Assembly: GCA_009773155.1 (NCBI GenBank)
Contig: WOVA01000002.1
Location: 6,889-70,888, forward strand
Direction: 5' to 3'
DNA length: 64,000 nucleotides
Source of the DNA: Elusimicrobiota bacterium
GTDB taxonomy: Bacteria > Elusimicrobiota > Elusimicrobia > Elusimicrobiales > UBA9959
A program made the position numbers and the translations under genes. Numbering within the stretch: position 1 is the first letter of the stretch; every line of letters begins with the position of its first letter. Positions 3,292 through 21,107 of the stretch are shown in pieces. Under the pieces are notes generated by a model. That model made no database searches. It saw nothing but the letters and a program-made list of their open reading frames with translations, and was not told where the DNA came from.

Positions 3292-4068
3292 ATGGATATA
3301 ATGACTCTAGTCGGTTTCGCCCTGGCGGCCGCCGTCATGACGTGGGGCATAGCCACTTCCGGGGTCGGCGACCTGTTCCTCAACGCCCACGGTATAGTCC
3401 TGGTCATAGGCGGCACGCTGGCCGCGACGATAGTCAACACTTCGTTCTCCGGCTTCATGAGCGGAGTTCGCTCCTTCGCGATCATCTTCCGCAGTCCCGA
3501 TTACCCCTCCATCGACGATTGCGTGAAGGTCCTCGTTCAGCTTTCAGACACGGCGCATAAGCAGGGAGGCATAATGGCGCTGCAGAACGTCGACCCCGGT
3601 TTCGCAAGGGGCTTCCTGCGCCGGGCGGTCTCGGTCGCCATGGTCAGCGGCGAGTCCCGCGAGACGCGCGCCATACTGGAGGAAGAGGTGCGCCGCCGCC
3701 GCCTCGCCGTCAACGAGGACTCCAACTTTTACCGCACGATGGCCGTCCTCTCCCCTATGTTCGGCCTGATAGGCACGCTGTTCGGCATCATCGAGACGCT
3801 GACCAATATAACGGACCCGACGGCCATAGGCCGCTCGATGGCCATCGCCATCAGCTCGGCCTTCTACGGCATCGCCCTATCCAACCTGCTCTTCGTGCCG
3901 GTCGCCAACAAGATACGCCTGCGCGCCATCGAGGAGACGGCCGGCCTGCAGCTCGTGATCGAGGGCATCATGGACATCATGGCGGGCAAGACGCCGCACC
4001 TGGTCGAGATGCACCTGCGCGGCTATCTGACCGCCAACCAGGCGCGCTTGTCGAGGTCGGAGGCCTGA
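3292..4068 (+). CDS. motA: MotA/PomA-family stator channel protein
   Basis: 258 aa. Two N-terminal TM helices, a ~90-aa charged cytoplasmic loop, then the C-terminal TM pair with SPMFGLIGTLFG and AFYGIALSNLLFVP motifs. The size and loop fit MotA rather than ExbB/TolQ. Confidence 0.8.
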   Translation: MDIMTLVGFALAAAVMTWGIATSGVGDLFLNAHGIVLVIGGTLAATIVNTSFSGFMSGVRSFAIIFRSPDYPSIDDCVKVLVQLSDTAHKQGGIMALQNVDPGFARGFLRRAVSVAMVSGESRETRAILEEEVRRRRLAVNEDSNFYRTMAVLSPMFGLIGTLFGIIETLTNITDPTAIGRSMAIAISSAFYGIALSNLLFVPVANKIRLRAIEETAGLQLVIEGIMDIMAGKTPHLVEMHLRGYLTANQARLSRSEA

Positions 4069-4071
4069 GCC

Positions 4072-4701
4072 ATGGCCAGGTTCTACGAGCGCGAGGACGA
4101 GCTGGAGAACGAGCTCAACCGGGGAGCCCTTTGGGCCATCACCTACGGCGACCTGATGAGCTACCTCATGATCTTCTTCATGATCCTCTTCGCTTTCTAC
4201 AGTTCCAAGAACATCTCCGCCCAGTTCAGCATGCAGAGCCTGGAGGACACTTTCGGCAAGGACACCGAGACCACCTCGATGCTGTTCTCCAAGCACGGCA
4301 TACAGCAGATAGCGCAGGTCGAGATCTCGGCCAACAAGATAAATATCAATTTTTCCGAGCCGATACTCTTCACCCCCGGCAGCGACATCCTGCGGGAGCA
4401 GTCGAAGCCGCATCTGAAGCGGCTGGCCAAGGTCTTCAGCGACCTGCCCAACCCGATACAGATAGAGGGGCACACCGACGCCCGGCCGCTGGGCAGGGGC
4501 GCCAAGTTCAGGTCCAACTGGGAGCTTTCGGCGGCCCGGGCCTTCTCCGTGCTGAAGTTCATGGTGGAGCAGGGAGTGGCCCCCGAGAAGCTCTCGGCCG
4601 TGGGCTACGGCGAGTTCAAGCCGATAAGGTCCAACGAGACGCCGGAGGGCCGCTCCTCCAACAGGCGCATAGAGATAAACATCATCCGCCACGAGATCTG
4701 A
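4072..4701 (+). CDS. motB: MotB-family stator protein with OmpA-like peptidoglycan-binding domain
   Basis: 209 aa. The single TM helix has the conserved Asp (WAITYGDLMSYLMIFFMILF). The C-terminal OmpA_C-like part reads IEGHTDARP...NWELSAARA...GYGEFKP...NRRIEI. Starts 3 nt after motA. Confidence 0.8.
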   Translation: MARFYEREDELENELNRGALWAITYGDLMSYLMIFFMILFAFYSSKNISAQFSMQSLEDTFGKDTETTSMLFSKHGIQQIAQVEISANKININFSEPILFTPGSDILREQSKPHLKRLAKVFSDLPNPIQIEGHTDARPLGRGAKFRSNWELSAARAFSVLKFMVEQGVAPEKLSAVGYGEFKPIRSNETPEGRSSNRRIEINIIRHEI

Positions 4702-4708
4702 GCCGGCC

Positions 4709-6802
4709 ATGAAACTTACCACCCGATTCTTCCTGATACTGCTGGGAATAGCCGTGTTCCCGCTGCTGGTGTCCGTCGGGTGGAACGTCTACCAGTACCG
4801 CGGCAGCATCGCCGGCGTCTTCAGCCTGCACAGGACGGTCTCTTCGCTGGCCGCCTCCAACATGGAGGAATGGCTGGCCAGCGTCAATCGCAGCCTCGCT
4901 TTTCTCTACACCGTAGAGCATCCCCTCCAGAAGAAGAACATAGACGAAACGGCCCTTATAAAAGAGGCGGTCGCCGTCAACTCGGAGATCATGGCGCTGA
5001 GCTTCCTCGCCTCGGACGGCTCCGAGCTCTTCAAGCTGCAGAGCGAGAACGTCAAAAGCAAAGCCCACCTTACGACTTTCACCCCGGAGCTGGCGGACAA
5101 GGCCCGCAACGCGGCCACTATACAGATGGGGGAAGTGATCTGCGCGGAGGGGCAGCCTTTCTTCCCCCTCGCCTACCCGCTGATAGACTCGCGCGTCGTC
5201 ATCTTCCACTTTTCGCTGGAGAAGCTCTGGGGCAAGATGGGAGAGATGCGCACCGGCGAGAGCGGCCGGGTGATAATACTGGACAAGCAGGGCGTGCCGC
5301 TGCCGTGCCAGGGGATCGATCCCAGGTCGATAGATTCCGAAGCCGTCCGCCGGACTTTCAAGATCAGCGCCAAGATCGACCGCATGCCCGCCATGAAGAT
5401 AGACAGGGAGCGTTTCGCCGGCGCCTACGCCGCCACCGAGAAGCTCCCGTGGGTGGCGGTCTCGCTGCAGAGCCACGACGAGATCTACGGGGCCCAGCGC
5501 CGCTCCATAATCCTGTTCTCCGTCTTCACGCTCATCTCCGCGGTCACCACCGTCATAGTCGTGCTGCTGATCTCGCGCCGCATCATCGCCCCGATAAACA
5601 ACATGGTGAACGGCGTAAAGAAGTTCCTCAAGGACCAGCGCCTGGACAAAGTGATACCCGCCGAAGGCTGGCCGGAGATAAAGAACCTGGTCGGGATCCT
5701 CAACCGCATGATGCTGGAGCTCCAGGCCTACCGCGCCTTTCAGCTCAACCAGATAATGGAGGAGAAGAACAAGGCCCAGGCGCTCATTGACACCATCCCC
5801 GACGGAGTGCTGCTGCTCGACGACCGCGGCACGCTGATCTACTCCAACCAGCTGGCGCTCAGCCTGCTCGGCCTGGGCCGCAATCCCTCGGGGGCGGTGC
5901 TGCCCAAGTCCATACGCGGCGACGCCTTCCGCGAGAAGTTCCAGGAACTGCTGGCCTCCAAAGAGAAGTACGCACGCGACGAGGTGGAGGCCCTCCTGGA
6001 GGGGACCTCCCCGCCCGTACTCAAGAATTACCGCGTCCTGGCTGCGCAGTTCATGCAGGCCACGCTCAAGCGTCCGGGACGGGTGATCATCATCCGCGAC
6101 ATCACCAACGAGAAGGAGCTGGAGAAGGTCAAGGAAGACTTCTTCCATATGATCACGCACGACATGCGCGCGCCGCTCTCGACCATACAGGGCTACGTTG
6201 AGCTGCTGATGAAGAAGCTGCCGCCCAATCCCGGCACCGATAAGTATTTCCAGAGCATGCTCTACTCCTCCCGCCGGCTGCGCGGCATGATAGACGACAT
6301 CCTCAACACCACCAAGCTGCAGCGCGGCACCATGACGCTGCAGCTGGACACGATCTCGGCCGCCGAACTGGTCACCCGCGTTAAGGAGAACCACGACCCG
6401 GTGGCCGTGCCCAAGAAGATAACCCTGGCGGCCGCCCCGTCCCCGGAGAACATAGAGTTCAACGGCGACCGGACGCTGCTGGAGCGCGTCATAACCAATC
6501 TGATGGGCAACGCGCTGAAGTTCACCCCCCCGGGCGGCAAAATAACGCTCGGCTGCTCGCAGGACGCCGATAAGGTCTTTTTCTGGGTGGAAGACACCGG
6601 CCCCGGCATACCGGAGGATAAACGCAAGGCCATCTTCGAGAAATATTCGCAGATGGAGGAGCATAAGAGCCAGGGCTTCGGCCTGGGCCTGGCGATGTGC
6701 AAGATGACGGTGGAGCTGCACAAGGGCGACATCTGGGTGGAATCCGAGGTGGGCAAGGGTTCCAAGTTCATATTTACCGTCGCGAAAGGCATAACTCAAT
6801 AG
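4709..6802 (+). CDS. sensor histidine kinase (2 TM with periplasmic sensor domain, HAMP, PAS, HisKA, HATPase)
   Basis: H-box HMITHDMRAPLSTIQGY, N-box GNALKFTPPGG, G1 DTGPGIP, G2 GFGLGLAMC. Two TM segments flank a ~250-aa extracytoplasmic region. Confidence 0.9.
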   Translation: MKLTTRFFLILLGIAVFPLLVSVGWNVYQYRGSIAGVFSLHRTVSSLAASNMEEWLASVNRSLAFLYTVEHPLQKKNIDETALIKEAVAVNSEIMALSFLASDGSELFKLQSENVKSKAHLTTFTPELADKARNAATIQMGEVICAEGQPFFPLAYPLIDSRVVIFHFSLEKLWGKMGEMRTGESGRVIILDKQGVPLPCQGIDPRSIDSEAVRRTFKISAKIDRMPAMKIDRERFAGAYAATEKLPWVAVSLQSHDEIYGAQRRSIILFSVFTLISAVTTVIVVLLISRRIIAPINNMVNGVKKFLKDQRLDKVIPAEGWPEIKNLVGILNRMMLELQAYRAFQLNQIMEEKNKAQALIDTIPDGVLLLDDRGTLIYSNQLALSLLGLGRNPSGAVLPKSIRGDAFREKFQELLASKEKYARDEVEALLEGTSPPVLKNYRVLAAQFMQATLKRPGRVIIIRDITNEKELEKVKEDFFHMITHDMRAPLSTIQGYVELLMKKLPPNPGTDKYFQSMLYSSRRLRGMIDDILNTTKLQRGTMTLQLDTISAAELVTRVKENHDPVAVPKKITLAAAPSPENIEFNGDRTLLERVITNLMGNALKFTPPGGKITLGCSQDADKVFFWVEDTGPGIPEDKRKAIFEKYSQMEEHKSQGFGLGLAMCKMTVELHKGDIWVESEVGKGSKFIFTVAKGITQ

Positions 6803-6819
6803 CGGAGGAGAGGGAGACC

Positions 6820-7200
6820 ATGGCGCTGATACTTATAGTGGACGACAACGACGAATTCCGGGGGATGATCGCCGACTACTTCGGCGAGCTCGGCTACAGG
6901 ATAGCGATGGCGATGAACGGCGCGGAGGGCCTGGCCCGGGCCAGGGAACTCAAGCCGGACCTGATAATCTGCGACGTGATGATGCCCGACGTCGGCGGCA
7001 TAGAGGTGCTGCGCGGCCTTCAGGCCGAAGATGACACCCGTTCCATCCCGGTGCTGGTCATGACCGGCACCTTCTTCGACAAGCAGATGAGCGAGCTTTT
7101 CCGGCAGGAATCCAACTGCCGCGAGTTCATGAGCAAGACCACTGAACTGGCCTACGTGCAGAAGAAGGTGGAGTCCCTGCTCGGCGGGGCCGGGAAGTGA
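6820..7200 (+). CDS. single-domain (CheY-like) response regulator
   Basis: ILIVDDND, DLIICDVMMPDVGG, VLVMTG and FMSK are all present, so the receiver is canonical. Start placed at ATG 6820 behind GGAGAGGGAG. The upstream part of track ORF 6697-7200 overlaps the kinase 3' end. Confidence 0.85.
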   Translation: MALILIVDDNDEFRGMIADYFGELGYRIAMAMNGAEGLARARELKPDLIICDVMMPDVGGIEVLRGLQAEDDTRSIPVLVMTGTFFDKQMSELFRQESNCREFMSKTTELAYVQKKVESLLGGAGK

Positions 7201-7565
7201 CTCCTCCCCTGGTGCTCGTCGCCGACGACGAGCCCGATTATCTCGAGATCGCCTCGCGGCTGCTGGAGGAGGCCGGGCTGCGCGCCGCCCGGGCCGCCAC
7301 CGGCGGCGAATGCCTCGCCGCCGCCGCCGCGGAGAAGCCGGGCCTTATAGTTCTGGACATAGGCCTGCCCGACATGAGCGGCCTGGACGTTCTCAAGTCC
7401 CTCAAGTCGGACCCGGCCCTTAAGGAAGTCCCCGTCCTGCTTTTCACCGTGCGCTCGGAACTGGATTATGTCTCGGCCGGGCTGGCGGCCGGCGCGGCCG
7501 GCTATGTCATAAAGCCTTTCCGTCCCGAAGATTTCATAAAGAGAGTGAGGTCCTTCTTTGGCTAA
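7197..7565 (+). CDS. single-domain (CheY-like) response regulator
   Basis: LVLVADDEPD, LIVLDIGLPDMSG, LLFT and VIKPF motifs. GTG start overlaps the preceding stop (GTGA). Confidence 0.85.
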   Translation: MTPPLVLVADDEPDYLEIASRLLEEAGLRAARAATGGECLAAAAAEKPGLIVLDIGLPDMSGLDVLKSLKSDPALKEVPVLLFTVRSELDYVSAGLAAGAAGYVIKPFRPEDFIKRVRSFFG

Positions 7566-8313
7566 GACACCAGCGGCCGGCCGGCCCTCCGCCGCCGTCG
7601 TCTCGTCCGGCCCCGCCGGGGAGCGGATGCTCAAGGCCCTGGAACGGGCCGGCTTCGCCGCGGCATCTTTTCCCGCCGCGGGACCGTTCATCTCCTCGCT
7701 CGCCTCGGCGGTGCCGGACCTGGCCGCCGTAGACACTGAGCTGCCGGACCTGGGCGGGGCCGACCTGGCGCTGGCCCTGCGCCGCAATCCCCCCACTGCC
7801 GGCGTCACGCTGATAATATTTTCAGCCGCGCCGCGCGTCCCGGCTGAAGTCGTTACCGGGCTGGACAGCGGGGCCGACGATTATCTCAGCCCTCTCCCCC
7901 CTCCCGAAGAACTGGATGCCCGGCTGCGCAATCTTCTGGAGCGCGGCCTGCGCGGGCGCGCCGGGCCGGCATCAGCGGGGGACTCCATGCGGCAGGGTGT
8001 CCCCGTTCCGCCCGTTATCAGGGCCGGCGGCCTGGAAGTGGACCTCTCGGCGCGCACGGTGACCGCCTGCGGCAAGGCCGCGGACCTGACCAGCCTGGAA
8101 TTCGACCTGCTCGTTTTTTTTCTGAACCACCCCAACCGCGTCATAGCGCGCGGAACGCTGATGGAGGCCCTCTGGAAGGACCCCGCTTCGGCGTCCCAGC
8201 GTGCCGTGGACAAGCGTGTGGAGGCGCTGCGCGCCAAACTGGGCGGCTTCGCGGCGCGCATAGAGACGGTGTTCGGAATGGGATACCTGTTGAGGCTCAA
8301 CGACGAATGCTGA
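7558..8313 (+). CDS. OmpR/PhoB-family winged-helix regulator with degenerate receiver domain
   Basis: C-terminal Trans_reg_C pattern (LEVDLSARTV...LTSLEFDLLVFFLNHPNRVIARGTLMEALW...VDKRVEALRAKL...ETVFGMGYLL). The receiver keeps the phospho-Asp position (AAVDTELPD) but reads VVSS where VVDD is expected and YLSPLP where Y.tKPf is expected. TTG start overlaps the upstream gene by 8 nt. Confidence 0.75.
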   Translation: MAKTPAAGRPSAAVVSSGPAGERMLKALERAGFAAASFPAAGPFISSLASAVPDLAAVDTELPDLGGADLALALRRNPPTAGVTLIIFSAAPRVPAEVVTGLDSGADDYLSPLPPPEELDARLRNLLERGLRGRAGPASAGDSMRQGVPVPPVIRAGGLEVDLSARTVTACGKAADLTSLEFDLLVFFLNHPNRVIARGTLMEALWKDPASASQRAVDKRVEALRAKLGGFAARIETVFGMGYLLRLNDEC

Positions 8314-8325
8314 GACCGCCGGGTC

Positions 8326-10386
8326 TCAGGCTTTCTTAGGCGGCGGAGGCGGCGGCGGAGGAGGTGCCTGGTCCTTCGGGGCTTCCTTGGCTTTGGGCTC
8401 TTCCGACTGAGGCAGTGCGCCCCAGTCCAGGGGCAGGATGAACATCGCGGCCGCCCCTCTTTCCTTCCTGTTAGATACCGTGAACTCCCCGCCGTGTCTT
8501 TCCACTATCCTGTGGGCCGTGGCCAGGCCTATGCCGGTGCCGTCCTTCTGGGAAGTATTGAAGGGCAGGTAGAGGCGGTCCATGACTTCGGCCGGGAAAC
8601 CGTGGCCGTTGTCCTCGAAGATCACCACGGCCTTGGAACGGTCCTCGGTGCCGGTCATCGTCATCTTGAGCGAGGTGCCGGGCGGCAGGTTCTCGTAGGC
8701 GTTCTTTATCACCTGGTAGAAGGCCAGGCGCAGCTTCTCCCTGTCCATTTTGATCCAGGCGGACGGCAGTATGACCTGCCGCGAGAGCGAAAGTTTCTTG
8801 TTGCGGAAAGGCCGCTCCCAGCCGTCCAGCAGGCCGTCGAGCATGGCGCGCAGCTCGCCGCGTTCCAGGTGCAGCGGCGTCTCGTCGATATAGGCCTGCC
8901 AGCCTTTCATCAGCGTTACGGAGGAAAGCATGGCCTTGAGCGACGGGGCCAGGTTCTTGCGGGCGGCGGCGGGCAGGCGGTAGCTGAAGAGGTTGAGGTC
9001 TCCCGATATCTTTGCGAGGCCCTTTATTACCTTTTCGGTGAAATCGAACTGTTCGCGCTTGATCAGGCCGCTCAGGCGCATATTGCGGCGCTTGAGGTCC
9101 TCGACCTCCTCCTGCAGGCGGTCTATCCTGCCCAGTTCCTGCTTAAGCAGCGCTATCGAGGCGTCGCGGTCGCGGAGTTTCTTGATGGTTTCGCGCAGAT
9201 TGTCGTCGGCCTTGCGCAGGGTCTCGCGCAGCGATTCTCCCTCGGCGAGGAGCGTGTTGATCCTGGCCGCGGAGCGCTTGTTGATCTCTTTTTCCAGCGA
9301 AAGACCGGTCTTTGTCTCGCGGAGCAGGCCGTTGAGCTTCTCGGTCTCGGCGCGCGAATCCCGCAGCTGGTCCGCCAGGGACTTCTCCTTCTCCAGCGCC
9401 TCCTCCAGGCCGCGGCGCAGCTCCGCCGCTTTCGACTGCAGCTCGAAGACCTTCCGCACCGCGCCCGCGAAATTAGCCTTCTGCTCCTCGGCGGAGAGGC
9501 GGGCGTCGCGCAGCTCCATCCGCAGGGCATGGGCCGCCGCTTCCCCTTCGGCGGCAAGTGTTTCCAGGCCTTCTTCCTTCTCGCGCAGCGACCCGGCTTC
9601 GGCCCGCGCCGCGGCCAGCGCTTTCCGGGCCTCGTCCAGGGCGGCCGCTGCTTCGGCCAGCGCCAGGCCGGAAGTCCTGCCCGTCTCGCGGGCGGCGGAC
9701 AGTTCTCCGGCCAGCTCGTCGGCCCGGGCGGAGGCCCCGGCCAGCGACTTCTCGAGAGAGTCTTTCTCCGATCTGATAGCGGCTATTTCTTCGTCGAGCG
9801 CCGCGGCTTCGGTTGTCCTGGTCTCCAGTTCGGCGGCCAGTCTGGCGGTCTCCGCTCCGGCGTCGGCCAGCTCGCGCAGCAGGTCCTCGGGCGCCACGGT
9901 TCCACCCCGGCCGGCGGCCGCGGCTTCGAGCGCCTCGGCCAGCGGTTTCATGGCGGCTAACGCCGTGAGGCGGGCCTCCAGGGCACCGGCCCTCGCCGAA
10001 GTCCCGTTCAGATTTTTTTCAAGCGCCGCCTTTTCCCCCTCGAGCAGGGCGGCGCGCTCCTTTTCGGAATCCAGCCCGGCGGCCAGTTTTTCCGCGCGCT
10101 CCGCCAGGGCGGCGTGTCCTTCGAGCAGGCCGGAGGCCCGCTTCACCAGGTCCTCCCTGGCCGCGGCGTCGGCGCGCATCTTCTCTATCTCCGCCTTGAG
10201 GGCGGATTCGCGCGAGCGCGCTTCCTGCAGCGCCCGTTCCAGGTGGGCCAGCCGCGAATTAAGTTCCCCCGCCCTGCGCGCGGCCTCCGCGTAGTTCTGC
10301 GAAAGGCGCCCGGCCTCCTCCTGGGCGCTCTTCATCGCGTCCCAGAGGAAGCCTATCTCGCGGCCGGCGGGGTTTTCGCCGCTCAT
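8326..10386 (-). CDS. coiled-coil protein with C-terminal histidine-kinase-like ATPase domain, no H-box histidine, poly-Pro tail
   Basis: Start placed at MSGENPAG (ATG 10386), which overlaps the upstream stop as ATGA. About 440 aa are A/E/L/R-rich heptad-like sequence. It then has N-box VIKNAYEN, G1 EDNGHGF and G2 GTGIGLATA. The H-box position reads FDFTEKVIKGL. The protein ends APPPPPPPPPKKA. Confidence 0.75.
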   Translation of the reverse strand: MSGENPAGREIGFLWDAMKSAQEEAGRLSQNYAEAARRAGELNSRLAHLERALQEARSRESALKAEIEKMRADAAAREDLVKRASGLLEGHAALAERAEKLAAGLDSEKERAALLEGEKAALEKNLNGTSARAGALEARLTALAAMKPLAEALEAAAAGRGGTVAPEDLLRELADAGAETARLAAELETRTTEAAALDEEIAAIRSEKDSLEKSLAGASARADELAGELSAARETGRTSGLALAEAAAALDEARKALAAARAEAGSLREKEEGLETLAAEGEAAAHALRMELRDARLSAEEQKANFAGAVRKVFELQSKAAELRRGLEEALEKEKSLADQLRDSRAETEKLNGLLRETKTGLSLEKEINKRSAARINTLLAEGESLRETLRKADDNLRETIKKLRDRDASIALLKQELGRIDRLQEEVEDLKRRNMRLSGLIKREQFDFTEKVIKGLAKISGDLNLFSYRLPAAARKNLAPSLKAMLSSVTLMKGWQAYIDETPLHLERGELRAMLDGLLDGWERPFRNKKLSLSRQVILPSAWIKMDREKLRLAFYQVIKNAYENLPPGTSLKMTMTGTEDRSKAVVIFEDNGHGFPAEVMDRLYLPFNTSQKDGTGIGLATAHRIVERHGGEFTVSNRKERGAAAMFILPLDWGALPQSEEPKAKEAPKDQAPPPPPPPPPKKA

Positions 10387-11837: not shown

Positions 11838-11910
11838 AGACGGGGAGGCGCCGGCCTCCCTTTCATTGTAAATAATAGGAGATACGGGTTACAAAGTTGT
11901 TTCGTGAGGG

Positions 11911-13329: not shown

Positions 13330-13332
13330 CGG

Positions 13333-15309
13333 CTATCTCGAGAACCTTATTATCCTCTCCAGGGCCTTCTTGGCCTGCGCGTTCTCCGGGTCGAGCACCA
13401 GTATGCGGCGGAAGATGTCGGCCGCCTTGCCGTACTCGCCCTTGGCGTAGAAGTCCGCGCCGGTCTGGTAGAGCTTCTCTATCTCGCGCGGCGCCGTCGC
13501 GGGCTTCTTTTCCTCGCGCTCAGCCTCGGGCACCGGCGGCACCCAGGTGGCCCCGCCGCTCTTGCGGCGCGCCTCCGAGACCATTTTGGTCAGGGCGGAC
13601 TTCTCGCTGGGCTCGGTCTCCGCCTTGAGCGCCTTGTCCCACCAGCCGGCGGCCTGCGCGTAGTTGCCCATCATGTAATGGCAGGAGCCGGCCTTCTTCA
13701 TCGCGTCGCGGTTGTCCGGTTCGTACTCCAGCGCGTCCTCGAGCTTGCGCAGCGCGTCGTCGTAGTTCTTCTGCGCGTAGAGGATCTCGGATTCCTTTAT
13801 CCTGTGCAGCGCCAGGCCGCCCTTGAAATCAGCGGGCACCCTCTCGGCCTTGAGGTGCGTCATGTCCTCGACGCCCTCCAGGAAGCGGCTGAGCGCGGCG
13901 TCGTCGCGGTTAAGACTGTGGGCGAAGGAGATCTCGCGGACCGCGCGGCTGTCCTGGCCCTTGAGGAAGTGGGTGATGCCCTGCGAGAGGCGGTTCTCCC
14001 ATTTCTCCTTTTCGGACTCGCCCGGCATGGCCGGGTAGAACTGGCCGGTCAGGTTAAGGCGGCGGCTGAGATTTATCAGCGAGGCGTCGGGCAGCAGGTC
14101 CTTGGCCTCCTCCATCAGCGTCCTGGCGGCGGTCTGGTATTTCTCGTCCATTATGAGACGTTTCACGCCAGTCAGCCGCGGGTTCTCCAGGCTGGCCAGT
14201 TCGCGGGTGCTCTTGTACTCGGAAACCTCGGCGAGGCGCTGGTACTGCTCCAGCAGGTCCTTCTCGTACTGCTCCTCTACGGTGGGGCCGCCGAAATGGT
14301 AGCTCATCGCCATACGGTGGGTTCCCGCCGTATCCTTTACGGTCCCCAGCGGCAGGATGAAGGCGTAGTCGAAGCCTATCTTGTTTATCTTGTAGGAGAG
14401 GCCGGCCGTGACCTGGCGGAAATCCCTGGTCCCGGCGCCCAGCGAGCCGCGCACGCTGATCTCGCCCTTGTCGAGCGTGGGAAATACCCGCTCCGCCGCC
14501 ACGATCATATCCCTGTCCATCTCGCCCGTAGGCCCCTCGCTGAAGCGGAGCTCGGAGGAAAGCGTCATCCAGAGCGCGCGGTAGGTGGCCCCGATCGCCG
14601 TGCGCATGGGCAGCTTGTCCTCAGCCCCGTCCCCGAAAGCGACGTTGGGCTGCAGAACGCTTTTGAGAGCCAGCCCGGCCGAATATCTCTTGCCGAGAGA
14701 GTAGATGAAGCCAAGGTCCAGGTCCATCGCGGAGGCGGCATTGGCGCCTATCAGGACGGAGTCCACCTGGCCGGTAGCCAGGAACCCGTCCATCGCGTCA
14801 TAAGTCTCTTCCAGGCGCTCGAAGGAGCGGGAGAGGAGCTTGAACGAGGCGCCGGCCGAAAGGTTCTCCAGCATCGTGTTGGGAGCGAAGGCGTAGCCGT
14901 AGGAGAGCTGCATCGTGCGCTCGGCGTAGACGCCGCTGAGGCTGAACTGGTTCCAGAGCCCGCCCATCACGCCCAGTTTGCCGCCGCGCAGCGGCACGGC
15001 CATGGCCATGCCCGTCATGCCCAGGCTGGAGCCGTCGCTCAGGCCGGTATGGAGCAGGGAGTGGGAGGCCAGGAACTTTACCCGCTCCAGACCGGCCAGG
15101 CCGGCCGGGTTGTAATGCACCGCGGAGACGTCGTCGGCCGCGGCCGTGAAAGCGTTGCCCAGACCGGGCGCCCGCGCGCCGAAGCCCAGGTCCTCGAAGG
15201 CGGAGAAGGCCGGACCCGCGGACAGCAGAGCCAGCAGCGCCGTCAGTCCCCGCAAAGCGAGGACAAGCGCCGCCGTCCCTCCGATCGCGAGTCCTTTTAC
15301 CCTGGTCAT
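13333..15309 (-). CDS. outer-membrane beta-barrel (PorV / PorP-SprF / UPF0164-like) fused to C-terminal TPR domain
   Basis: Start at MTRVKGLAIGG (signal peptide ending AFS-AFE). The N-terminal motif GARAPGLGNAFTAAADDVSAVHYNPAGLAGL is typical of PorV-like barrels. About 400 aa show alternating beta-strand patterns and a terminal aromatic (MSYHF). About 240 aa follow with TPR-like repeats (YAQKNYDDALRKLEDALEYEPDN, YAKGEYGKAADIFRRILVLDPEN). Confidence 0.65.
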   Translation of the reverse strand: MTRVKGLAIGGTAALVLALRGLTALLALLSAGPAFSAFEDLGFGARAPGLGNAFTAAADDVSAVHYNPAGLAGLERVKFLASHSLLHTGLSDGSSLGMTGMAMAVPLRGGKLGVMGGLWNQFSLSGVYAERTMQLSYGYAFAPNTMLENLSAGASFKLLSRSFERLEETYDAMDGFLATGQVDSVLIGANAASAMDLDLGFIYSLGKRYSAGLALKSVLQPNVAFGDGAEDKLPMRTAIGATYRALWMTLSSELRFSEGPTGEMDRDMIVAAERVFPTLDKGEISVRGSLGAGTRDFRQVTAGLSYKINKIGFDYAFILPLGTVKDTAGTHRMAMSYHFGGPTVEEQYEKDLLEQYQRLAEVSEYKSTRELASLENPRLTGVKRLIMDEKYQTAARTLMEEAKDLLPDASLINLSRRLNLTGQFYPAMPGESEKEKWENRLSQGITHFLKGQDSRAVREISFAHSLNRDDAALSRFLEGVEDMTHLKAERVPADFKGGLALHRIKESEILYAQKNYDDALRKLEDALEYEPDNRDAMKKAGSCHYMMGNYAQAAGWWDKALKAETEPSEKSALTKMVSEARRKSGGATWVPPVPEAEREEKKPATAPREIEKLYQTGADFYAKGEYGKAADIFRRILVLDPENAQAKKALERIIRFSR

Positions 15310-15323
15310 ATAAGCGTCCGCCG

Positions 15324-15716
15324 TTACCTGATCACAACGACCGTGCCCTTTATGACGGTCTCGCCGACCGTTATCTGATAGATGTAAACGCCGCCGGCCG
15401 CGCGCATCCCCAGGTTGGGGTTCCATTCCATTTTGTAGTAACTGTCCGTCAGGGAGATCTCCTTCAGCGTCATGTCCGCCACCTTCCGGCCCTTGAGGTC
15501 GAAGATCTCCCCTTTTACCAGTAACTCGGAGGGATTGTGGCACTGGAAGACGAAAGTGTCGTTCCTGGAGTCGCCGTTCGGGGTCACCAGGCGGCTGAGC
15601 GCGCGCGAACTTCCGACGGTGACGGCGGCCATCAGCGCTGGGGCGAGCAGCAGCGCAGCGGCCAGCGATATGGCCGCGCTGCCGACTCCCTTATTGAGTA
15701 GTTCCGGTTTTTTCAT
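15324..15716 (-). CDS. small secreted protein made of one CHU_C / T9SS type-B-like (FlgD-Ig-like) C-terminal domain
   Basis: Start MKKPELL with a signal-like hydrophobic stretch. Then LVTPNGDSRNDTFVF...GEIFDLKGRKVA...GGVYIYQITVGETVIKGTVVVIR. The module is shared with the C-terminus of the 15880-17514 product. Confidence 0.7.
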   Translation of the reverse strand: MKKPELLNKGVGSAAISLAAALLLAPALMAAVTVGSSRALSRLVTPNGDSRNDTFVFQCHNPSELLVKGEIFDLKGRKVADMTLKEISLTDSYYKMEWNPNLGMRAAGGVYIYQITVGETVIKGTVVVIR

Positions 15717-15861
15717 AAATCGAGACCTGACGTTCGCGGTTAAATCGTACAAAAGGCGTGCGACTATTTTATTTCGTAAATGTGAAGGTTGTTTTTCCCT
15801 GCGCGCCGGATTTTTTACTTTCCTGTCACAATCCCGCAATATTTCAGTCGCAAGGCGGCGC

Positions 15862-15867
15862 TATAAT
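15862..15867 (+). promoter_or_regulatory. candidate -10 box (TATAAT) 12 nt upstream of ATG 15880
   Basis: GCTATAATTTATTCCATACTATG lies in the AT-rich divergent intergenic region 15717-15879. No Shine-Dalgarno sequence lies between the box and the ATG. Confidence 0.35.
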
Positions 15868-15879
15868 TTATTCCATACT

Positions 15880-17514
15880 ATGCGCGTTCTCATTTTAATC
15901 TCCCTCCTCCTGTGCGCCGGCCCTTCCTGGGCCGGGCGCTACGAGTCGGCCTCCTTCGTAGAGACCGACGGGCGCCTGGGCTGGGGCGGAGCGCTGGGGG
16001 AATCCAACGCTTTCAGGTCCTTTTCTTCGGTGGATGGTCTGTCAGTCTCGACTTCAGTTTCACCGGGAAATCCGCCGGATCATTACGGCTATTCCTCGCG
16101 TTCCGGCGCCTTCGCCTATTTCCCGCAGCCGGCCGCGGTAAGCGACCTGGCCACGCTCACCGTTTCCAGCGATTCGCTTAAGCTCACCTGGACCGCTCCC
16201 GAGGAGACCTGGTTCAGCCGCGCCGGCAGCGCCTCCCGTTACGTTCTCAAATATTCCCTGTCCGCCCCTATAAATACGGAGGCGGAATTCCGGAGCGCGA
16301 CGGAAGTCCCCCAACTCCCCCAGCCCTGGAGCCCTCTGGCCGCCGGCACCACGGAAACCTTCATCCTGAACGGTTTCAACCCCGGCGCTACTTACTACTT
16401 CGCTCTCAGGTCGTATAACTCCGAGACCGTCGCTTCCGAACTTTCCAACAGGGCCGCGGCTTTCGCGCTGACGCCACTGCCTCCCATGAATTTCCAGGCA
16501 ACCGCCGGGCCTAATGCTTACTCCCTTTCCTGGATCCCCCCCGCCGGTTATTCGACCCGTATAGAGTTCAACGACAGGTTCAGCCCCAACTATCCCTACG
16601 AGGTCAAGGTTTATCAGGTCTTCCGGGCCACCACCCCAACCACCGATAATTGGTCTTTCAGGGCCGAAGTTTCCTCCTATACCCTCAGTTTCGTGGACGA
16701 CCAGATATCGGCCGGGGTGGAATACTATTATCGCGTGAGCGCGGTGAACCAGGCCGGCCTTTCCAGGCCTTCCTATGTGCGCGGCGGCCTCTCCAATGCC
16801 GGCTATTTTCTGGGCCCCGACGGGTCGAGTCTCATGGAGATACCGCAGACAGCCATGGCTCCTTTCTCCGGTCCCGCCTCAGACCAGATGGACTTCTACA
16901 CCATAGAGGTCGCTTCCAATACCGACGAAATAGGAGGCCGCGTGATAAAGAGCGTGGATTTCGCGGCTTATCGCGGCGGCCTCACGCGCGACGACTCCTT
17001 CAAACTCTCCGCCCCGGGTTCCATGCGTCTTTATTATTCCAAAGCAGGCGACGCGTTCGTCCCTTCGGCGACCGTGCCGGATTACAAGCGGCTGAGCGTC
17101 TTCTTTCACAACGGGCGGCGCTGGCTGCAGCTCTACGGCAAGGTGGACCAGCCCAATTCGCGGGTCACGCTTGAGACTACGATGCTGGGGCGCTACCAGC
17201 TCCGCTCGACCGAAAGGAGCGGCGGTTTCGCCGCCGACGCCTCGGGCCTCTCCAACCGCCTGATAACGCCGAACGGCGACGGCAAAAATGATACGATGGT
17301 CTTCGTTTTCGACGATCCGGCCGGGACTTCCGTCAAGGGAACGATATTCGACCTCAAGGGCGCCAAGGTGGCGTCCATGACGCCCGGGCCGGTCGGGAAT
17401 TCGCTGGTCTGGGACCCGCGCGCCGAAGGCCGCAGCGTGCCTGGCGGAGTATATATTTACCAGATAGAGTCCGGCGGCGAAGTGTTCAACGGTACCGCCG
17501 TGGTGATCAGGTGA
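15880..17514 (+). CDS. secreted fibronectin-III-repeat protein with CHU_C / T9SS type-B-like C-terminal domain
   Basis: Start MRVLILISLLLCAGPSWAG (signal peptide). FN3-like units are present (LKLTWTAPEE...YYFALRSYN; LSWIPP...YYYRVSAVNQAG). The C-terminus reads LITPNGDGKNDTMVFVF...GTIFDLKGAKVA...GGVYIYQIESGGEVFNGTAVVIR. Confidence 0.75.
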   Translation: MRVLILISLLLCAGPSWAGRYESASFVETDGRLGWGGALGESNAFRSFSSVDGLSVSTSVSPGNPPDHYGYSSRSGAFAYFPQPAAVSDLATLTVSSDSLKLTWTAPEETWFSRAGSASRYVLKYSLSAPINTEAEFRSATEVPQLPQPWSPLAAGTTETFILNGFNPGATYYFALRSYNSETVASELSNRAAAFALTPLPPMNFQATAGPNAYSLSWIPPAGYSTRIEFNDRFSPNYPYEVKVYQVFRATTPTTDNWSFRAEVSSYTLSFVDDQISAGVEYYYRVSAVNQAGLSRPSYVRGGLSNAGYFLGPDGSSLMEIPQTAMAPFSGPASDQMDFYTIEVASNTDEIGGRVIKSVDFAAYRGGLTRDDSFKLSAPGSMRLYYSKAGDAFVPSATVPDYKRLSVFFHNGRRWLQLYGKVDQPNSRVTLETTMLGRYQLRSTERSGGFAADASGLSNRLITPNGDGKNDTMVFVFDDPAGTSVKGTIFDLKGAKVASMTPGPVGNSLVWDPRAEGRSVPGGVYIYQIESGGEVFNGTAVVIR

Positions 17515-17540
17515 TTTACAGCGATCTTCGGAGGCGACTT

Positions 17541-20500
17541 ATGAAAACGTACAGAATGACCCTGCTGACCGCCGCGGCGGCCCTTCTCTCGGCGGCCGGC
17601 CTGGCCCGGGACGCCGGCGCCGCGATAACCCAGACCTTCAATTACCAGGGCTTCCTCCTGGACAAGGCGACCAATCTTCCCGTCGACGGGGCCAAGCACG
17701 TCCGGTTCCTTATCTACCCCGCCGCCTCGGGCGGCAGCGCGCTCTTCACCGAGATGGTCTGCGGCGTCCCCATGAACAAGGGCCGCTACGAGGTGGAGGT
17801 CGGTTCCCAGACCAGCGGCGGTATCCCGGCGGATATCTTCATCGGCAACCAGAACCTCTGGATGCAGGTCGAGATAGCCCCCACCGCCGTCTGCGGCGGC
17901 TCTTTCGACCCCCTCTCGCCGCGTATGCGTCTGCAGGCCGCCGCTTTCGCTTTCAACTCCCTCTACGCCTCCACGGCCAGCGCGGCGACCCCGCTGTTTT
18001 CGGCCGACGTGATAGGCCCCCTGTCGCAGACCGCGAACGGGGCCATCACCATTTCCACCAACCTCTTCGTGCAGGGCGGCATCTCGGTGGGCAGCATCTC
18101 CCCCGGGCAGCAGCTGAGCGTCTCCGGCCTGGTCGAGAGCCGGGGCGCCGCCGGCTGCGCCGCCGGCCCCAACTATACCTGCGGCTTCAAGTTTCCGGAC
18201 GGCTCGGTTCAGGTAACCGCCGCGGCCGAGACGAAATGGGTACTCAACGGCAGCGATATGTACACGGAAGTGACGATCCAGAGAGTCGGAATAGGGGAGA
18301 CCGCGCCCAGGGCCCGGCTGCATATAAGCAGCGGCATCGGATCGGCTGGGAACATCGTGCTGATCTCCACCGGCTCCTCCGACCTCATCCGCATGACCGG
18401 CGAGGGCCGCATCTACGCTAATTACTTTCACGGCGACGGCTCGAATCTGACGGGGGCCACCGCCGCGGACCTGCTGCGGCTGCTCAAGGCCGGCGACACC
18501 ATGACCGGCCCGCTTACGCTGTCGGGCTCGTCCAGCATGACCGTAGTTAACACGAACAACTCGCTGGCCTATTCCCTGGCCGTCACCACCGACCCGGCCA
18601 GGCTGGCGTATCACTTCTCCGTCTCTACGGCCGGCTTCGTGGGCGTAGGAACCGTCTTCCCCTCCAGGCGCCTGCATGTATGGGCCCCACCCGGCACGGG
18701 AGCGGACCTTGTGGCCGTCACTACCGGCACTTCGGACGTCTTCCGTGTCGACGGCGCCGGGAACGTACACGGCCTGACTTTCCACGGCAACGGCTCCGGC
18801 CTGACCGACGTCTTCTCGACGGACCCCACCAGGGTGCTCAAGGCCGGCGATGCCATGACGGGCCAGCTTACGCTGGCCGGCTCCTCGCTCACCGTCAGGG
18901 GTTCCGCCGGCCTGGCCGTAAGCACGGGAACCTGGCTCTCCGTCGGGGCCTCCACCGCCGCGCACAAGGTCTATATAGACGGCGGCGTGCTGGTCACCTC
19001 AAGCGTGACGGCCCAGGGCGGCTTTATCGGCCCGTCGGCGTCCTTGCTCGGGCATCTCCAGGCGGGGGCCGTAACCGCCACCAGCGGCACCTTCACGAAC
19101 TTCGGCGATGGCAAATACAGCATAATCACCACCTCGGGCATAAAAGTGGGGGATCTCGGCTTCGTGGAAGCGCCTTTTTACCTGGGCAGCGGCGCGTATC
19201 TTACCAATGTCCTGGGGACCGACAGCAGCAAGGTGCGGAAGGCGGGCGACGTTATGACCGGCAGCCTCCGCGTGGAAGGTTCCAGCGTCGGACTGTTCGG
19301 CTACGGCGGCTCCTTCGCCTACGCGCTCACCGTGGCCACGGTCACGAACCCATCCTCCTACGCCCTCGCCGTCACGACGCAGGGGCGGGTCGGCGTGGGT
19401 GTTTTGACCCCTTCGTATCCCTTTCATGTCCTGAGCGGGATCGGAGTAACGGTTCCCGATAACAGCGCCGACGCGAAGGTCACGCTGCAGACGGCCGGCG
19501 GCGGCGCCGGATATATTGCCTGGGATGACACGGCTTATCCCGGAATAGGGATACTAGGTGCCCCGTTCGGAGGCAGGGATCTGGTCTACAGGGCCGCGGC
19601 GACCTCTATGGCGAACGGGACGGAAGTCTTTCGCATAAAAGAGAACGGAAGTTTCGGTATAGGTACGGCGGCCCCCTCGGAGCGTTTCCACGTGGCCACC
19701 AATATGCTGGTCAGCACCTCCGCGGTGAACCCGCTGCTCTATGTCAGTTCCGTCACCGGCAGGGTGGGCATCGGCACTAACTCGCCCCAGACCCACCGCC
19801 TGGTGGTCAACGGCGGCATGGTCGTGGCCTCGAGCCTGACCGTGCAGAACGGGATACACGGCACGATATACGGCATAATAAGCAGCACCGAACTTTACGT
19901 CGACGGCAACGCCGGCATAGGCGTCTCCACCCCGCTGGCCAGGCTGCACGTGGTGGAGAAGGGCAACGAAATCTATTCCCTTATAGTAGGTTCCAATAAT
20001 ATCGTGGGCCTGAACTATGACCTGGTGGTGACCACGCAGGGCCGAGTCGGAATCGGAATCGCCAATCCCCAGCAAACCCTTCATGTCGGCGGGACCCTTA
20101 AGGTCGGGTCCAACGACTCCCTTGACACGGGGTCTGCCCGGCTGCAGCTCCGTCCGCTGGGCGGTCATTCACTGATAAGCTTCGAGTCAACGGGCAAGGG
20201 CGCCATCGCCGTTATGGGTACCGACGATACCCCGGAGGATTTTATTTTCCGTACCGACTCGGCCAGCCTAGGTTCCGGCACCGAGATATACCGCATCAAA
20301 AAGACCGGCCAGTTCGGCATCTATAACGCCGCCCCGGAGGAACGGCTGCATATCGGTGGCAATACTCTGATAAGCACGGCGGCGGTCACGCCGATAATGT
20401 TCGTCTCCACCGGCACGGCCCGTGTGGGAGTCGGCACGCGTTCCCCGTCGGCGCGGCTGCATCTCTCCAGCGGCGCCTTCTACAATGACGGCACCGGAGC

Positions 20501-20897
20501 CGGGATAACGACGCTGGGCAATGTCACAGCCGCGGCCTATTACGGCAACGGCGCCAACCTCAGCGGCGTCATCACCTCCACCGATGTTATCGTGGCCGAT
20601 ATCGCCGCCCGGGTGCGCAAGGACGGCGACACTATGAGCGGCCCGCTTATCACCACCGGCCTCACGGTGACCGGGGCGGCTAATTTCGGCTCGCTGCCGA
20701 CCAAATCCACTTTCACCGCCGACGGTTTCTGGCAGCCCCGCGCCATGACTACAACGGAACTCCGGGCCGCGACGCCCCCGGGTATAGGGCTGGTCGTATA
20801 TAACTCGACTATCCCAGACCTGTGCGTTTCGACAGGGACGGCGACAGCCGGAGCCTGGGCCCTGATAGGATCGAGGGCAGCAGGGAACTGCTACTGA
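17541..20897 (+). CDS. large repetitive fibre/adhesin-like surface protein with tail-fibre-type repeats
   Basis: Start MKTYRMTLLTAAAALLSAAGLA behind GGAGG. There are nine G-x-(V/F)-G-(I/V)-G...(R/K/T/P)(L/F)H(V/I/L) units, four K(A/D)GDxM(T/S)GxL motifs and four (F/Y)(H/L/Y)G(D/N/S)G(S/A)xL(T/S) motifs. The N-terminal module reads NYQGFLLD...LFTE...LWMQVEI. The C-terminal module reads MTTTELRAATPPGIGLVVYNST...GAW. Confidence 0.7.
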   Translation: MKTYRMTLLTAAAALLSAAGLARDAGAAITQTFNYQGFLLDKATNLPVDGAKHVRFLIYPAASGGSALFTEMVCGVPMNKGRYEVEVGSQTSGGIPADIFIGNQNLWMQVEIAPTAVCGGSFDPLSPRMRLQAAAFAFNSLYASTASAATPLFSADVIGPLSQTANGAITISTNLFVQGGISVGSISPGQQLSVSGLVESRGAAGCAAGPNYTCGFKFPDGSVQVTAAAETKWVLNGSDMYTEVTIQRVGIGETAPRARLHISSGIGSAGNIVLISTGSSDLIRMTGEGRIYANYFHGDGSNLTGATAADLLRLLKAGDTMTGPLTLSGSSSMTVVNTNNSLAYSLAVTTDPARLAYHFSVSTAGFVGVGTVFPSRRLHVWAPPGTGADLVAVTTGTSDVFRVDGAGNVHGLTFHGNGSGLTDVFSTDPTRVLKAGDAMTGQLTLAGSSLTVRGSAGLAVSTGTWLSVGASTAAHKVYIDGGVLVTSSVTAQGGFIGPSASLLGHLQAGAVTATSGTFTNFGDGKYSIITTSGIKVGDLGFVEAPFYLGSGAYLTNVLGTDSSKVRKAGDVMTGSLRVEGSSVGLFGYGGSFAYALTVATVTNPSSYALAVTTQGRVGVGVLTPSYPFHVLSGIGVTVPDNSADAKVTLQTAGGGAGYIAWDDTAYPGIGILGAPFGGRDLVYRAAATSMANGTEVFRIKENGSFGIGTAAPSERFHVATNMLVSTSAVNPLLYVSSVTGRVGIGTNSPQTHRLVVNGGMVVASSLTVQNGIHGTIYGIISSTELYVDGNAGIGVSTPLARLHVVEKGNEIYSLIVGSNNIVGLNYDLVVTTQGRVGIGIANPQQTLHVGGTLKVGSNDSLDTGSARLQLRPLGGHSLISFESTGKGAIAVMGTDDTPEDFIFRTDSASLGSGTEIYRIKKTGQFGIYNAAPEERLHIGGNTLISTAAVTPIMFVSTGTARVGVGTRSPSARLHLSSGAFYNDGTGAGITTLGNVTAAAYYGNGANLSGVITSTDVIVADIAARVRKDGDTMSGPLITTGLTVTGAANFGSLPTKSTFTADGFWQPRAMTTTELRAATPPGIGLVVYNSTIPDLCVSTGTATAGAWALIGSRAAGNCY

Positions 20898-21056: not shown

Positions 21057-21107
21057 TTGGCGACAGCGTGACTCCGCCATTGGCGGCGCCCGGCTGGCCG
21101 GCCCCGG

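Follow-up and report, generated by a model that had tools for sequence, protein, structure and literature searches.

The torque interface between MotA and FliG is treated as specific to the flagellum, and a recent classification takes the features of flagellar-type stators as markers of flagellar motility (PMC12505986). What, then, might a stator and a FliG torque domain be doing in a conserved gene cluster that lacks the rest of a flagellum, and whose other members include an outer-membrane carrier and a sorting domain of the families that serve type IX secretion and gliding in Bacteroidota? This question is raised by a 64,000-nucleotide stretch of contig WOVA01000002.1 from an Elusimicrobiota bacterium (GenBank assembly GCA_009773155.1, a metagenome-assembled genome of the order Elusimicrobiales), hereafter called the window. 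Between positions 3292 and 20897 it holds 13 genes, here numbered g1 through g13, which encode a MotA/MotB stator (g1, g2), a fusion of FliF and FliG domains (g8), an outer-membrane barrel (g10), two exported proteins that end in a sorting-type C-terminal domain (CTD; g11, g12), a fibre-like protein (g13) and a set of signalling proteins (g3 through g7, g9).

An initial annotation, made from the DNA letters alone, had described these as 13 tightly packed genes in three transcription units. Gene calls and the third-position GC signal select the same frames, and the three units hold with respect to gene order, strand and spacing. Every domain guess was confirmed by Pfam, NCBIfam and structure searches, with the window copies of the CHU_C sorting domain falling just below the cutoff. 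These profile searches had been set beforehand as a possible refutation, and they do not reject the FliF, FliG or CHU_C assignments. Guided by such sequence comparisons, we hypothesize, with a probability of roughly 0.45, that the cluster encodes a self-contained, non-flagellar, envelope-spanning machine in which an ion-driven rotor-stator pair, controlled by two-component signalling, serves to deploy or move fibres at the cell surface.

The stator genes give the clearest indication of a flagellar-type motor. Specifically, g1 matches Pfam MotA_ExbB (67.7 bits) and has four transmembrane helices and a long cytoplasmic torque-generating loop. Its residues 1-252 align over the full length with residues 1-248 of Vibrio PomA (8bri, E 3.5e-34), and other MotA structures match as well. 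NCBIfam models for flagellar motor protein and PomA reach about 150 bits, which is short of their equivalog cutoffs, versus 22 bits for TolQ, and a motor of the Tol/Exb type was rejected for g1 on this ground. The channel prolines are retained, as is a conserved basic residue at PomA R88/K89, the equivalent of R90. Around PomA E96-E99, distant members retain the sequence DE, and the close family shows an Asp that is invariant but displaced by two to three positions. The partner g2 matches Pfam OmpA (75.7 bits) and MotB_plug (38.8 bits, cutoff 24) as well as MotB and PomB structures (E 1e-24). The channel Asp of its ITYGDLMS segment aligns with the Asp of TFSDTIT in the Clostridium sporogenes MotB structure, so that plug, channel Asp and OmpA-like domain are all present. 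When the criteria of PMC12505986 are applied, the cytoplasmic loop of the A subunit and the plug and OmpA-like domain of the B subunit fit the flagellar type. Sequence and structure comparison thus identify g1 and g2 as a MotA/MotB stator of the flagellar type, its channel intact and its anchor to peptidoglycan present.

This stator also includes the most conserved gene of the locus. Orthologues of g2 share 73-84% identity across the order (average 81%), more than those of any other gene in the cluster, and MotA orthologues share 60-71%. The corresponding values for the flanking purB gene are 51-62%, outside two near-identical loci. From these values, we conclude that the stator is under strong constraint.

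The candidate for the rotor is g8. Pfam reports FliG_C (44.1 bits), FliG_M (34.6 bits) and the C-terminal part only of YscJ_FliF_C (24.9 bits, cutoff 23.8). A profile built from 30 members of the g8 family aligns with the FliG middle and C-terminal domains of Thermotoga maritima (1lkv) end to end, with E 1.4e-19 at profile positions 262-477. In the AlphaFold2 (AF2) model, an N-terminal hydrophobic helix (a signal sequence or first membrane span) precedes a periplasmic domain at residues 31-162 with the order alpha-beta-[40-residue insertion]-beta-alpha-beta. A long helix at residues 178-221 covers the hydrophobic stretch that we take as the second membrane span, and a disordered Gly/Glu-rich linker then leads to a fold like that of the FliG middle and C-terminal domains. 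Foldseek ranks FliG structures 1-13 and the third ring-building motif (RBM3), or S-ring, of FliF 14-31 (E 1e-4 to 1e-3, target TM-score about 0.5), followed by PrgK, EscJ and SpoIIIAG. The insertion between the first two strands of the periplasmic domain, which sits at the place of the beta-collar in FliF structures, holds invariant residues. Profile matches and the structural model thus make g8 a predicted inner-membrane fusion in which RBM3, the part of FliF that builds the ring, is joined to the two FliG domains, middle and C-terminal, that contact the stator.

What g8 lacks is equally informative. Neither RBM1 nor RBM2 was found by Pfam, AF2 or Foldseek, and the RBM3-like domain is the only one of its kind in the protein. 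In the flagellum, RBM1 and RBM2 of FliF surround the export gate. There is likewise no match to FliG_N, in whose place stands a 55-residue low-complexity linker. The FliM-binding EHPQR motif is not kept, with EHPQ aligning to a non-conserved e-p-e-e, and a different invariant patch is found instead (D288, A294, D298, H302, S304 and S305). The helix that aligns with the torque helix of FliG (PEDVRLIVKD) is conserved and charged, with an Asp at the position of Escherichia coli D288 and another at that of R281. Together with the basic residue that MotA keeps at the R90 site, the acid at D288 counts in favour of a candidate rotor-stator interface.

Could these genes nonetheless be the MS-ring, C-ring and stator portion of a true flagellum whose other genes reside elsewhere, or the decaying remnant of one? 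The homology of g1, g2 and g8 to MotA, MotB, FliF and FliG would agree with this, and a preprint on Elusimicrobiota reports complete flagellar gene sets in a few genomes of the phylum. However, g8 is missing RBM1, RBM2, FliG_N and the EHPQR motif. No gene for FliM, FliN, type III export, rod, hook or filament was found in the 64-kb window, as the initial annotation had claimed and a Pfam scan bears out, or within 10 kb of the fusion gene among about 45 loci. The genes conserved alongside g8 encode a PorP-type barrel and CTD proteins, and decay is difficult to reconcile with a stator that is more conserved than the flanking purB. Moreover, the same preprint finds motAB and fliG precisely where structural flagellar genes are absent: most free-living Elusimicrobiota possess motAB and fliG but none of the structural genes. 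Its authors call the role of motAB "unclear" and a possible part in twitching "enigmatic". The presumed absence of a flagellum draws on the architecture of g8, the flanks of about 45 loci and the statement of the preprint on free-living Elusimicrobiota. We judge this reading highly improbable; a canonical flagellar locus or a decaying remnant was rejected on the basis of g8 architecture, the conserved partners and the strength of conservation.

If the rotor-stator pair serves no flagellum, then its neighbours might reveal what it works upon. One of these is g10, which matches Pfam PorP_SprF (36.6 bits, cutoff 22.3), tetratricopeptide repeat (TPR) models and the NCBIfam PorV_fam model (46.5 bits). 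Its AF2 model (mean predicted local distance difference test score, pLDDT, 82.6) comprises 14 strands at residues 78-339 and TPR-like helices at 344-657 (about 310 residues). Foldseek assigns the model to the FadL family (E 3.7e-9), and the closest superpositions are with chain F of the T9SS (type IX secretion system) translocon structures 6h3i and 8gl6 (TMt 0.64 and 0.59; root-mean-square deviation 5.2 and 5.4), a chain that we take to be PorV. Some homologues of g10 are annotated as T9SS membrane protein PorP/SprF, the C-terminal TPR region is strongly conserved, and a PDB sequence search with g10 yielded TPR designs only. The predicted product is therefore an outer-membrane barrel of the PorV/PorP (FadL) type with a long periplasmic TPR domain.

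The neighbours also include the two CTD proteins. CHU_C scores of 24.6 bits for g11 and 26.9 bits for g12 are slightly below the cutoff of 27; the match recurs in all 23 g11 orthologues that were scanned, at best with E 9.9e-9. The g11 family shares an invariant motif, TPNxD..ND.F ... GG.Y.Y ... G, followed by a conserved V-I-R end (TPNGD-ND-F ... GG-Y-Y ... KGT-V-IR in the window), and its profile weakly matches the C-terminal domain of PorU. In addition to fn3 (44.3 bits), g12 matches the NCBIfam T9SS type B sorting domain TIGR04131 (24.2 bits, cutoff 35), and its CHU_C-like C-terminal domain is its most conserved part. The large protein g13 has no Pfam domain and no PDB sequence match. Residues 719-1013 match the PHROG tail fibre family phrog_9942 (E 3.2e-12), and there is a weak match to the N-terminal model of the Bdellovibrio mosaic adhesive trimer. 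An N-terminal region (120-200) and the C-terminal end of g13 are conserved, with a variable distal part. In Bacteroidota, type B CTD cargo is held at the cell surface by alternative carrier proteins (PMC10994853), which are PorP-like proteins according to the title of Gorasia 2022, cited therein.

These likenesses invite a different reading, in which the rotor-stator pair energises a T9SS-like secretion or attachment process in place of GldLM/PorLM. CTD proteins would be exported via a translocon encoded elsewhere and handed over to the PorP-like carrier, and no movement would follow. The CHU_C-like domains and the PorP/PorV-type barrel are conserved parts of the cluster, and one distant locus (L050, described below) has two PorV genes and several CHU_C or Por_Secre_tail proteins near its fusion gene. 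The ion-driven motor of Bacteroidota powers both secretion and adhesin movement (PMC10994853). Against this, no homologue of SprA/Sov, PorK/N or PorL/M is present in the window or in any flank that was examined, and the fibre g13 carries no CTD. Furthermore, T9SS is described as confined to Bacteroidota or the FCB group, at least in the reviews and abstracts that the literature searches yielded. We consider this explanation unlikely.

Whether the association between motor and barrel is meaningful can be judged from its conservation. All named homologues of the g8 fusion and the g10 barrel come from Elusimicrobia metagenome-assembled genomes (MAGs). A scan limited to one genome per species gave 44 loci, all from MAGs, of which 40 are titled Elusimicrobia, Elusimicrobiota, Elusimicrobiales or Elusimicrobiaceae, and four are titled "bacterium". 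The close relatives, including GWA2_61_42 and its kin, belong to family UBA9959 of the GTDB order Elusimicrobiales, and derive from groundwater with genomes of about 3 Mb. Synteny in relatives, on which the proposal of the initial annotation hinged, is extensive: a tblastn map places all 13 genes in identical order and orientation in every locus that is long enough, which amounts to about 30 species-level genomes. Outside three near-identical relatives, the cluster orthologues share 29-84% amino-acid identity. The left flank varies between purAB and acyl-CoA dehydrogenase genes, and therefore the cluster edge at motA appears to be real.

Beyond these close relatives, an exhaustive profile search of 1.84 billion representatives places 779 representative clusters in the fusion family at E ≤ 1e-10, and so the arrangement is not a one-off. 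Most of the best 150 of these 779 span both the periplasmic and the FliG halves, and full-length members have 450-850 residues. Named members of the wider family are from Elusimicrobiota, except for one 4.9-kb contig labelled Thermoprotei that is probably mis-binned.

Eight distant loci (L048 through L055), which were mapped with the window proteins and Pfam, have a rearranged gene order. In six of the eight, the gene immediately upstream of the fusion resembles g10, and a seventh has such a gene at another place, so that seven carry it within 10 kb; MotAB genes occur within 10 kb of the fusion gene in six. Three loci (L048, L053 and L055) contain almost the entire gene set in a different order, including orthologues of g3, which is also present in all close loci, and of g12. 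The smallest versions are L051, with a TPR protein, the fusion, MotA and MotB, and L054, with the barrel-TPR protein, the fusion, MotA, MotB and an fn3 protein only; neither has a kinase nearby. Thus, linkage among rotor, stator and barrel/TPR outlasts the rearrangement of gene order in distant lineages, which is firmer evidence than the initial annotation could draw on. Because these components persist, the recurrent core comprises the barrel with its TPR domain, the rotor fusion and the stator, with kinases, receivers, CTD proteins and fibres as frequent accessories.

Individual loci add variations of their own. In L049, the MotA and MotB genes come after the fusion and are followed by those for a HEAT-repeat protein and a CHASE2 cyclase. 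The fusion protein of L050 (1-16145) bears extra C-terminal TPRs, and nearby lie a Roadblock/LC7 gene, a pair of PorV genes and genes for CHU_C/Por_Secre_tail proteins, among them an S8 peptidase; no MotAB genes lie within 10 kb. In L052 (11574-13681), two MotB paralogues come after MotA, and then a kinase and a 1248-residue Kelch beta-propeller protein.

Almost half of the cluster is devoted to signalling, with three kinase-type proteins and three receivers making up six of the 13 genes. Both g3 and g9 are complete two-component kinases (HisKA plus HATPase_c), and g4 and g5 are complete receivers. In the close family and in L048, L053 and L055, g9 or its orthologue is directly upstream of the fusion gene. 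The DD/D/T/K residues of g4 are strongly conserved in 34 orthologues, and the catalytic residues of g5 are conserved. The OmpR-like character claimed for g6 is upheld by its Trans_reg_C domain, but its receiver is degenerate: Response_reg scores 32.2 bits at profile positions 14-108, and the N-terminal acidic pair is missing. In keeping with this division, the receiver half of g6 is poorly conserved and the winged helix-turn-helix half is conserved. The g7 protein contains about 430 residues of coiled coil (matches to coiled-coil families), ends in HATPase_c (61 bits) and then a poly-Pro tail; Pfam reports no HisKA match and no H-box is present. Its C-terminus (8326-8400, minus strand) is the Pro/Lys-rich tail PPPPPPPPPKKA, which is poorly conserved among orthologues.

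Such an abundance of regulators could indicate that the cluster is a mechanosensor or signalling device, in which load on the fibre or barrel alters stator torque or occupancy, and rotor-associated kinases relay the change to the receivers and the OmpR-like factor. Its purpose would then be surface sensing, not propulsion. The proportion of signalling genes favours this possibility, as does the physical association of kinases with the rotor. The g7 start and g8 stop codons overlap by 1 nt, and four lineages (the close family, L048, L053 and L055) have a protein with HATPase_c alone just after the fusion gene. In L049 (10001-12529), the FliF/FliG protein itself carries a HisKA-HATPase_c kinase at its N-terminus, 842 residues in all, and a coiled-coil-like protein follows. 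However, the minimal versions in L051 and L054 have no kinase nearby, and for this reason signalling is better viewed as an accessory than as the core. In addition, strong purifying selection on a complete stator that is predicted to conduct ions speaks for a motor that performs work. We therefore regard a purely sensory role as quite unlikely.

Returning to the hypothesis of an ion-driven rotor-stator machine, its parts could act together as follows. The g8 fusion would assemble as a ring through its RBM3-like domain, as RBM3 of FliF does. Peptidoglycan-anchored MotA5B2 units would use ion flow to push on FliG_C of g8, such that the ring either turns or is placed under torque. The periplasmic collar of this ring may engage the TPR domain of g10, whose barrel would hold the C-terminal domains of g11 and g12, in the manner of PorP-like carriers with type B cargo, and through them the g13 fibre. 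Ion-motive force would in this way be converted into the deployment, anchoring or movement of surface fibres, and the cell could gain gliding-type motility or dynamic adhesion as a result. Switching or gating of the motor might fall to the two kinases, to g7 as a rotor-coupled pseudo-kinase and to the two CheY-like receivers, with the receivers and g7 filling the regulatory place of the missing FliM/FliN switch, and the OmpR-like g6 might set expression.

Several points weigh against this hypothesis. Of the two classical MotA-FliG charge pairs that were compared (R90-D289 and E98-R281, E. coli numbering), only one is recognisably kept: the R281 position is an Asp, and the PomA E96/E97 positions (the E98 equivalent) are uncharged in the close family. 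The model of g8 is only moderately confident (pLDDT 68.6, predicted TM-score 0.35), and its collar insertion is unmodelled. Formation of the ring, docking of the stator and the contacts between collar and TPR and between barrel and CTD are all proposed from homology and gene linkage. A rotating ring must also pass its force through the peptidoglycan, and no rod-like component is seen. Nor does the hypothesis offer g11 through g13 a path to the surface, since there is no outer-membrane translocon in the cluster or window and a 14-stranded barrel cannot pass folded proteins. Finally, the physical ties between kinases and rotor, through g7 and through the kinase-rotor fusion of L049, fit signalling equally well.

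In a non-rotary alternative, the FliG-like domains might do no more than recruit MotAB. The barrel would be pulled on or tethered by the fusion together with the TPR domain, much as in Tol-Pal or TonB, in the service of an intact envelope or of gated uptake. Non-rotary work of many sorts is done at the outer membrane by motors of the same 5:2 superfamily (PMC12204202), and the barrel has the fold of FadL/PorV transporters. Yet the stator is of the flagellar type, with a plug and a long cytoplasmic loop, and does not resemble TolQ/ExbB. In its partner g8, both the RBM3 fold that builds rings and the torque domain of FliG are preserved, and the cluster includes a fibre and adhesin-like proteins. 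A force transducer of this sort strikes us as improbable.

The strongest form of the rotor-stator hypothesis envisages a novel rotary nanomachine that works autonomously, with MotAB spinning a ring of FliF(RBM3)-FliG(MC) subunits (MC, the middle and C-terminal domains). Coupled across the periplasm with a PorP-type carrier, this ring would drive fibres at the surface independently of export apparatus, rod, hook and filament. We hold this version only tentatively, and consider it more doubtful than the broader hypothesis. If it is true, then this would be the first FliG-MotA torque interface outside the flagellum, and a living rotor-plus-stator module without type III secretion would bear on the evolution of the flagellar motor. 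Even the broader hypothesis, if correct, would add a new class of ion-driven envelope machine and a candidate mechanism of motility or adhesion for free-living Elusimicrobiota. It would also render testable the old question of whether a rotor-stator pair can function and evolve independently of the type III export core.

The layout of the locus is summarised in Table 1. Along the plus strand from g1 to g6, gaps of 3, 7 and 17 nt are followed by overlaps of 4 and 8 nt, as originally described. Gaps of 14, 3 and 73 nt separate the minus-strand genes from g11 to g8. At the g8/g7 junction, however, the overlap is the 1-nt one of TGATG rather than the ATGA that had been claimed, and GGAGG lies upstream. 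The shared nucleotide of the g8 stop and g7 start codons suggests translational coupling of the two genes.

Table 1. Features of the cluster, with positions counted from the first nucleotide of the window.
Feature	Position	Strand	Size and start	Domains, score or source
g1 MotA, MotA/PomA-like flagellar-type stator A subunit	3292-4068	+	258 aa	
g2 MotB, stator B subunit	4072-4701	+	209 aa	plug, transmembrane helix with channel Asp, OmpA-like peptidoglycan-binding domain
g3 sensor histidine kinase	4709-6802	+	697 aa	Pfam: dCache-HAMP-PAS-HisKA-HATPase_c
g4 single-domain CheY-like response regulator	6820-7200	+	126 aa	Response_reg 71.6 bits
g5 second single-domain response regulator	7197-7565	+	122 aa, GTG start	Response_reg 93.7 bits
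g6 OmpR-type DNA-binding regulator	7558-8313	+	251 aa, TTG start	Trans_reg_C 62.9 bits
Candidate bidirectional terminator, GC-rich hairpin between convergent g6 and g7	8310-8329	.		terminator-like scan, consensus match only
g7 cytoplasmic coiled-coil/HATPase_c pseudo-kinase	8326-10386	-		Pfam
g8 FliF/FliG fusion, rotor candidate	10386-11837	-	483 aa	Pfam, profile, AF2, Foldseek
g9 membrane histidine kinase	11911-13329	-	472 aa	Pfam: HAMP-HisKA-HATPase_c
g10 outer-membrane barrel-TPR protein	13333-15309	-	658 aa	Pfam, NCBIfam, AF2, Foldseek
g11 small exported CTD-only protein	15324-15716	-		signal peptide and CHU_C-like domain of ~90 aa
Divergent g11/g12 intergenic region, presumed regulatory region of both outward-facing units	15717-15879	.		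sequence read
g12 exported fn3-repeat protein with CHU_C-like end	15880-17514	+	544 aa	Pfam, NCBIfam
g13 exported fibre-like protein, no CTD	17541-20897	+	1118 aa	PHROG

Within the divergent intergenic region, a perfect TATAAT is found at 15861-15866, 13 nt ahead of the g12 ATG; if it is a promoter element, then the leader must be very short. A scan for sigma-70-like promoters gave counts that are not above those of shuffled sequences, and its best match, at 3275-3302, overlaps the start of motA and is a chance match.

The other 46 kb of the window are housekeeping in nature (purAB, the rib operon, nuo, rnc, fabG, plsX, tig-clpP-lon and ackA), and a Pfam scan of this remainder found no flagellar, T9SS or pilus genes. 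The right-hand boundary of the cluster is set by an FMN riboswitch (RF00050, 108 bits, 20920-21059) that begins 23 nt past g13 and is followed by a terminator-like hairpin at 21106-21131. The ribBA gene must therefore start after about 21140 and not at the open reading frame (ORF) start of 21044. An ORF at 22951-24921 on the minus strand, antisense to the ribD/ribE calls and without a Pfam match, was treated as spurious. A small protein with DUF1232 and a C-terminal DnaJ domain is encoded at 26902-27348 (minus strand). A minus-strand run of nuo genes for NADH:quinone oxidoreductase spans 27352-40819, in which 13 ORFs carry domains of complex I subunits and one additional small ORF (40466-40819, minus strand) stands outside those 13. 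At 48049-50100 (minus strand) lies the gene for a 683-residue protein with an N-terminal TPR and a SpoIID domain, a peptidoglycan-remodelling family. Genes for tRNA-Lys(CTT) and tRNA-Leu(TAG) occupy 50194-50473, and since the latter overlaps the mechanical ORF start of trigger factor at 50431, the tig start lies farther downstream. The tig, clpP and lon genes (50431-54790, plus strand) are consecutive, with no clpX between clpP and lon.

How does this cluster compare with systems that are already known? The initial annotation had held that no described system has this composition. For the cluster as such this stands, as literature searches yielded no description of it, nor of any linkage between a PorP-type barrel and a FliG-MotAB pair. 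However, motAB and fliG in non-flagellated Elusimicrobiota, as well as a shorter FliF-FliG fusion in Chlamydiaceae, have been reported previously.

With the flagellum, the cluster shares full-length homologues of MotA/PomA and MotB/PomB and a rotor protein with RBM3-like and FliG middle and C-terminal domains. Unlike the flagellum, a single polypeptide stands for both FliF and FliG. Flagellar FliF has RBM1, RBM2, RBM3 and a collar in about 550 residues, of which g8 retains only an RBM3-like domain, and flagellar FliG has N, M and C domains and the EHPQR motif, of which g8 retains only M and C. The conserved neighbours of this rotor are the PorP-type barrel, CTD proteins and a fibre. The Chlamydiaceae protein resembles g8 as a natural short FliF-FliG fusion from bacteria that are regarded as non-flagellated, with fewer periplasmic ring-building motifs, but it has about 330 residues, RBM2 plus one further RBM-like segment, and the FliG M region only (bioRxiv 10.1101/023564). 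According to that paper, the flagellar genes of Chlamydia are limited to FliF, FliL and FlhA, which leaves no stator genes, and a link to type III secretion was proposed (Bergeron, bioRxiv 10.1101/023564). By comparison, g8 has 483 residues, an RBM3-like domain, FliG M and C domains, and adjoining MotAB genes, and thus falls outside the chlamydial type.

The resemblance to T9SS and Bacteroidota gliding lies in a PorP/PorV-family barrel, with g10 qualifying as a carrier barrel of the PorV/PorP/SprF type, beside proteins with a CHU_C-like C-terminal domain and a large surface protein, and in an ion-driven motor of the 5:2 type. Here, though, the motor is MotAB with a FliG domain instead of GldL/GldM, and the barrel is fused to TPRs. 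Searches of the window and of the Pfam gene tables of related loci found no GldL/GldM (PorL/PorM), PorK/N, SprA/Sov or PorU, and the phylum Elusimicrobiota is outside the described range of T9SS. The Agl-Glt machinery of Myxococcus also combines an ion-driven inner-membrane motor with TPR proteins, outer-membrane barrels and a coiled-coil cytoplasmic regulator, and a Roadblock/LC7 protein occurs in L050. The Agl motor, by contrast, is of the TolQR type and has no FliG or FliF domains, and it is compared with the present motor at the level of their shared superfamily. Zorya offers another non-flagellar, MotAB-like 5:2 motor (ZorAB), and g2 matches ZorB models via general MotB homology. However, g1 has neither a ZorA match nor the long ZorA tail, ZorC and ZorD are absent, and parts of the envelope and surface are found instead. 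Zorya was rejected accordingly, given that PADLOC reports no ZorA match for g1 and only a generic ZorB/MotB match for g2.

Because the cluster falls outside the flagellum, T9SS, the chlamydial fusion and Zorya, we rate it as a probable new kind of system assembled from known modules, with a function that is predicted from its genes. In operating logic, the proposed machine resembles the GldLM-SprF-SprB arrangement of Bacteroidota gliding, but the place of the motor is taken here by a flagellar rotor-stator pair.

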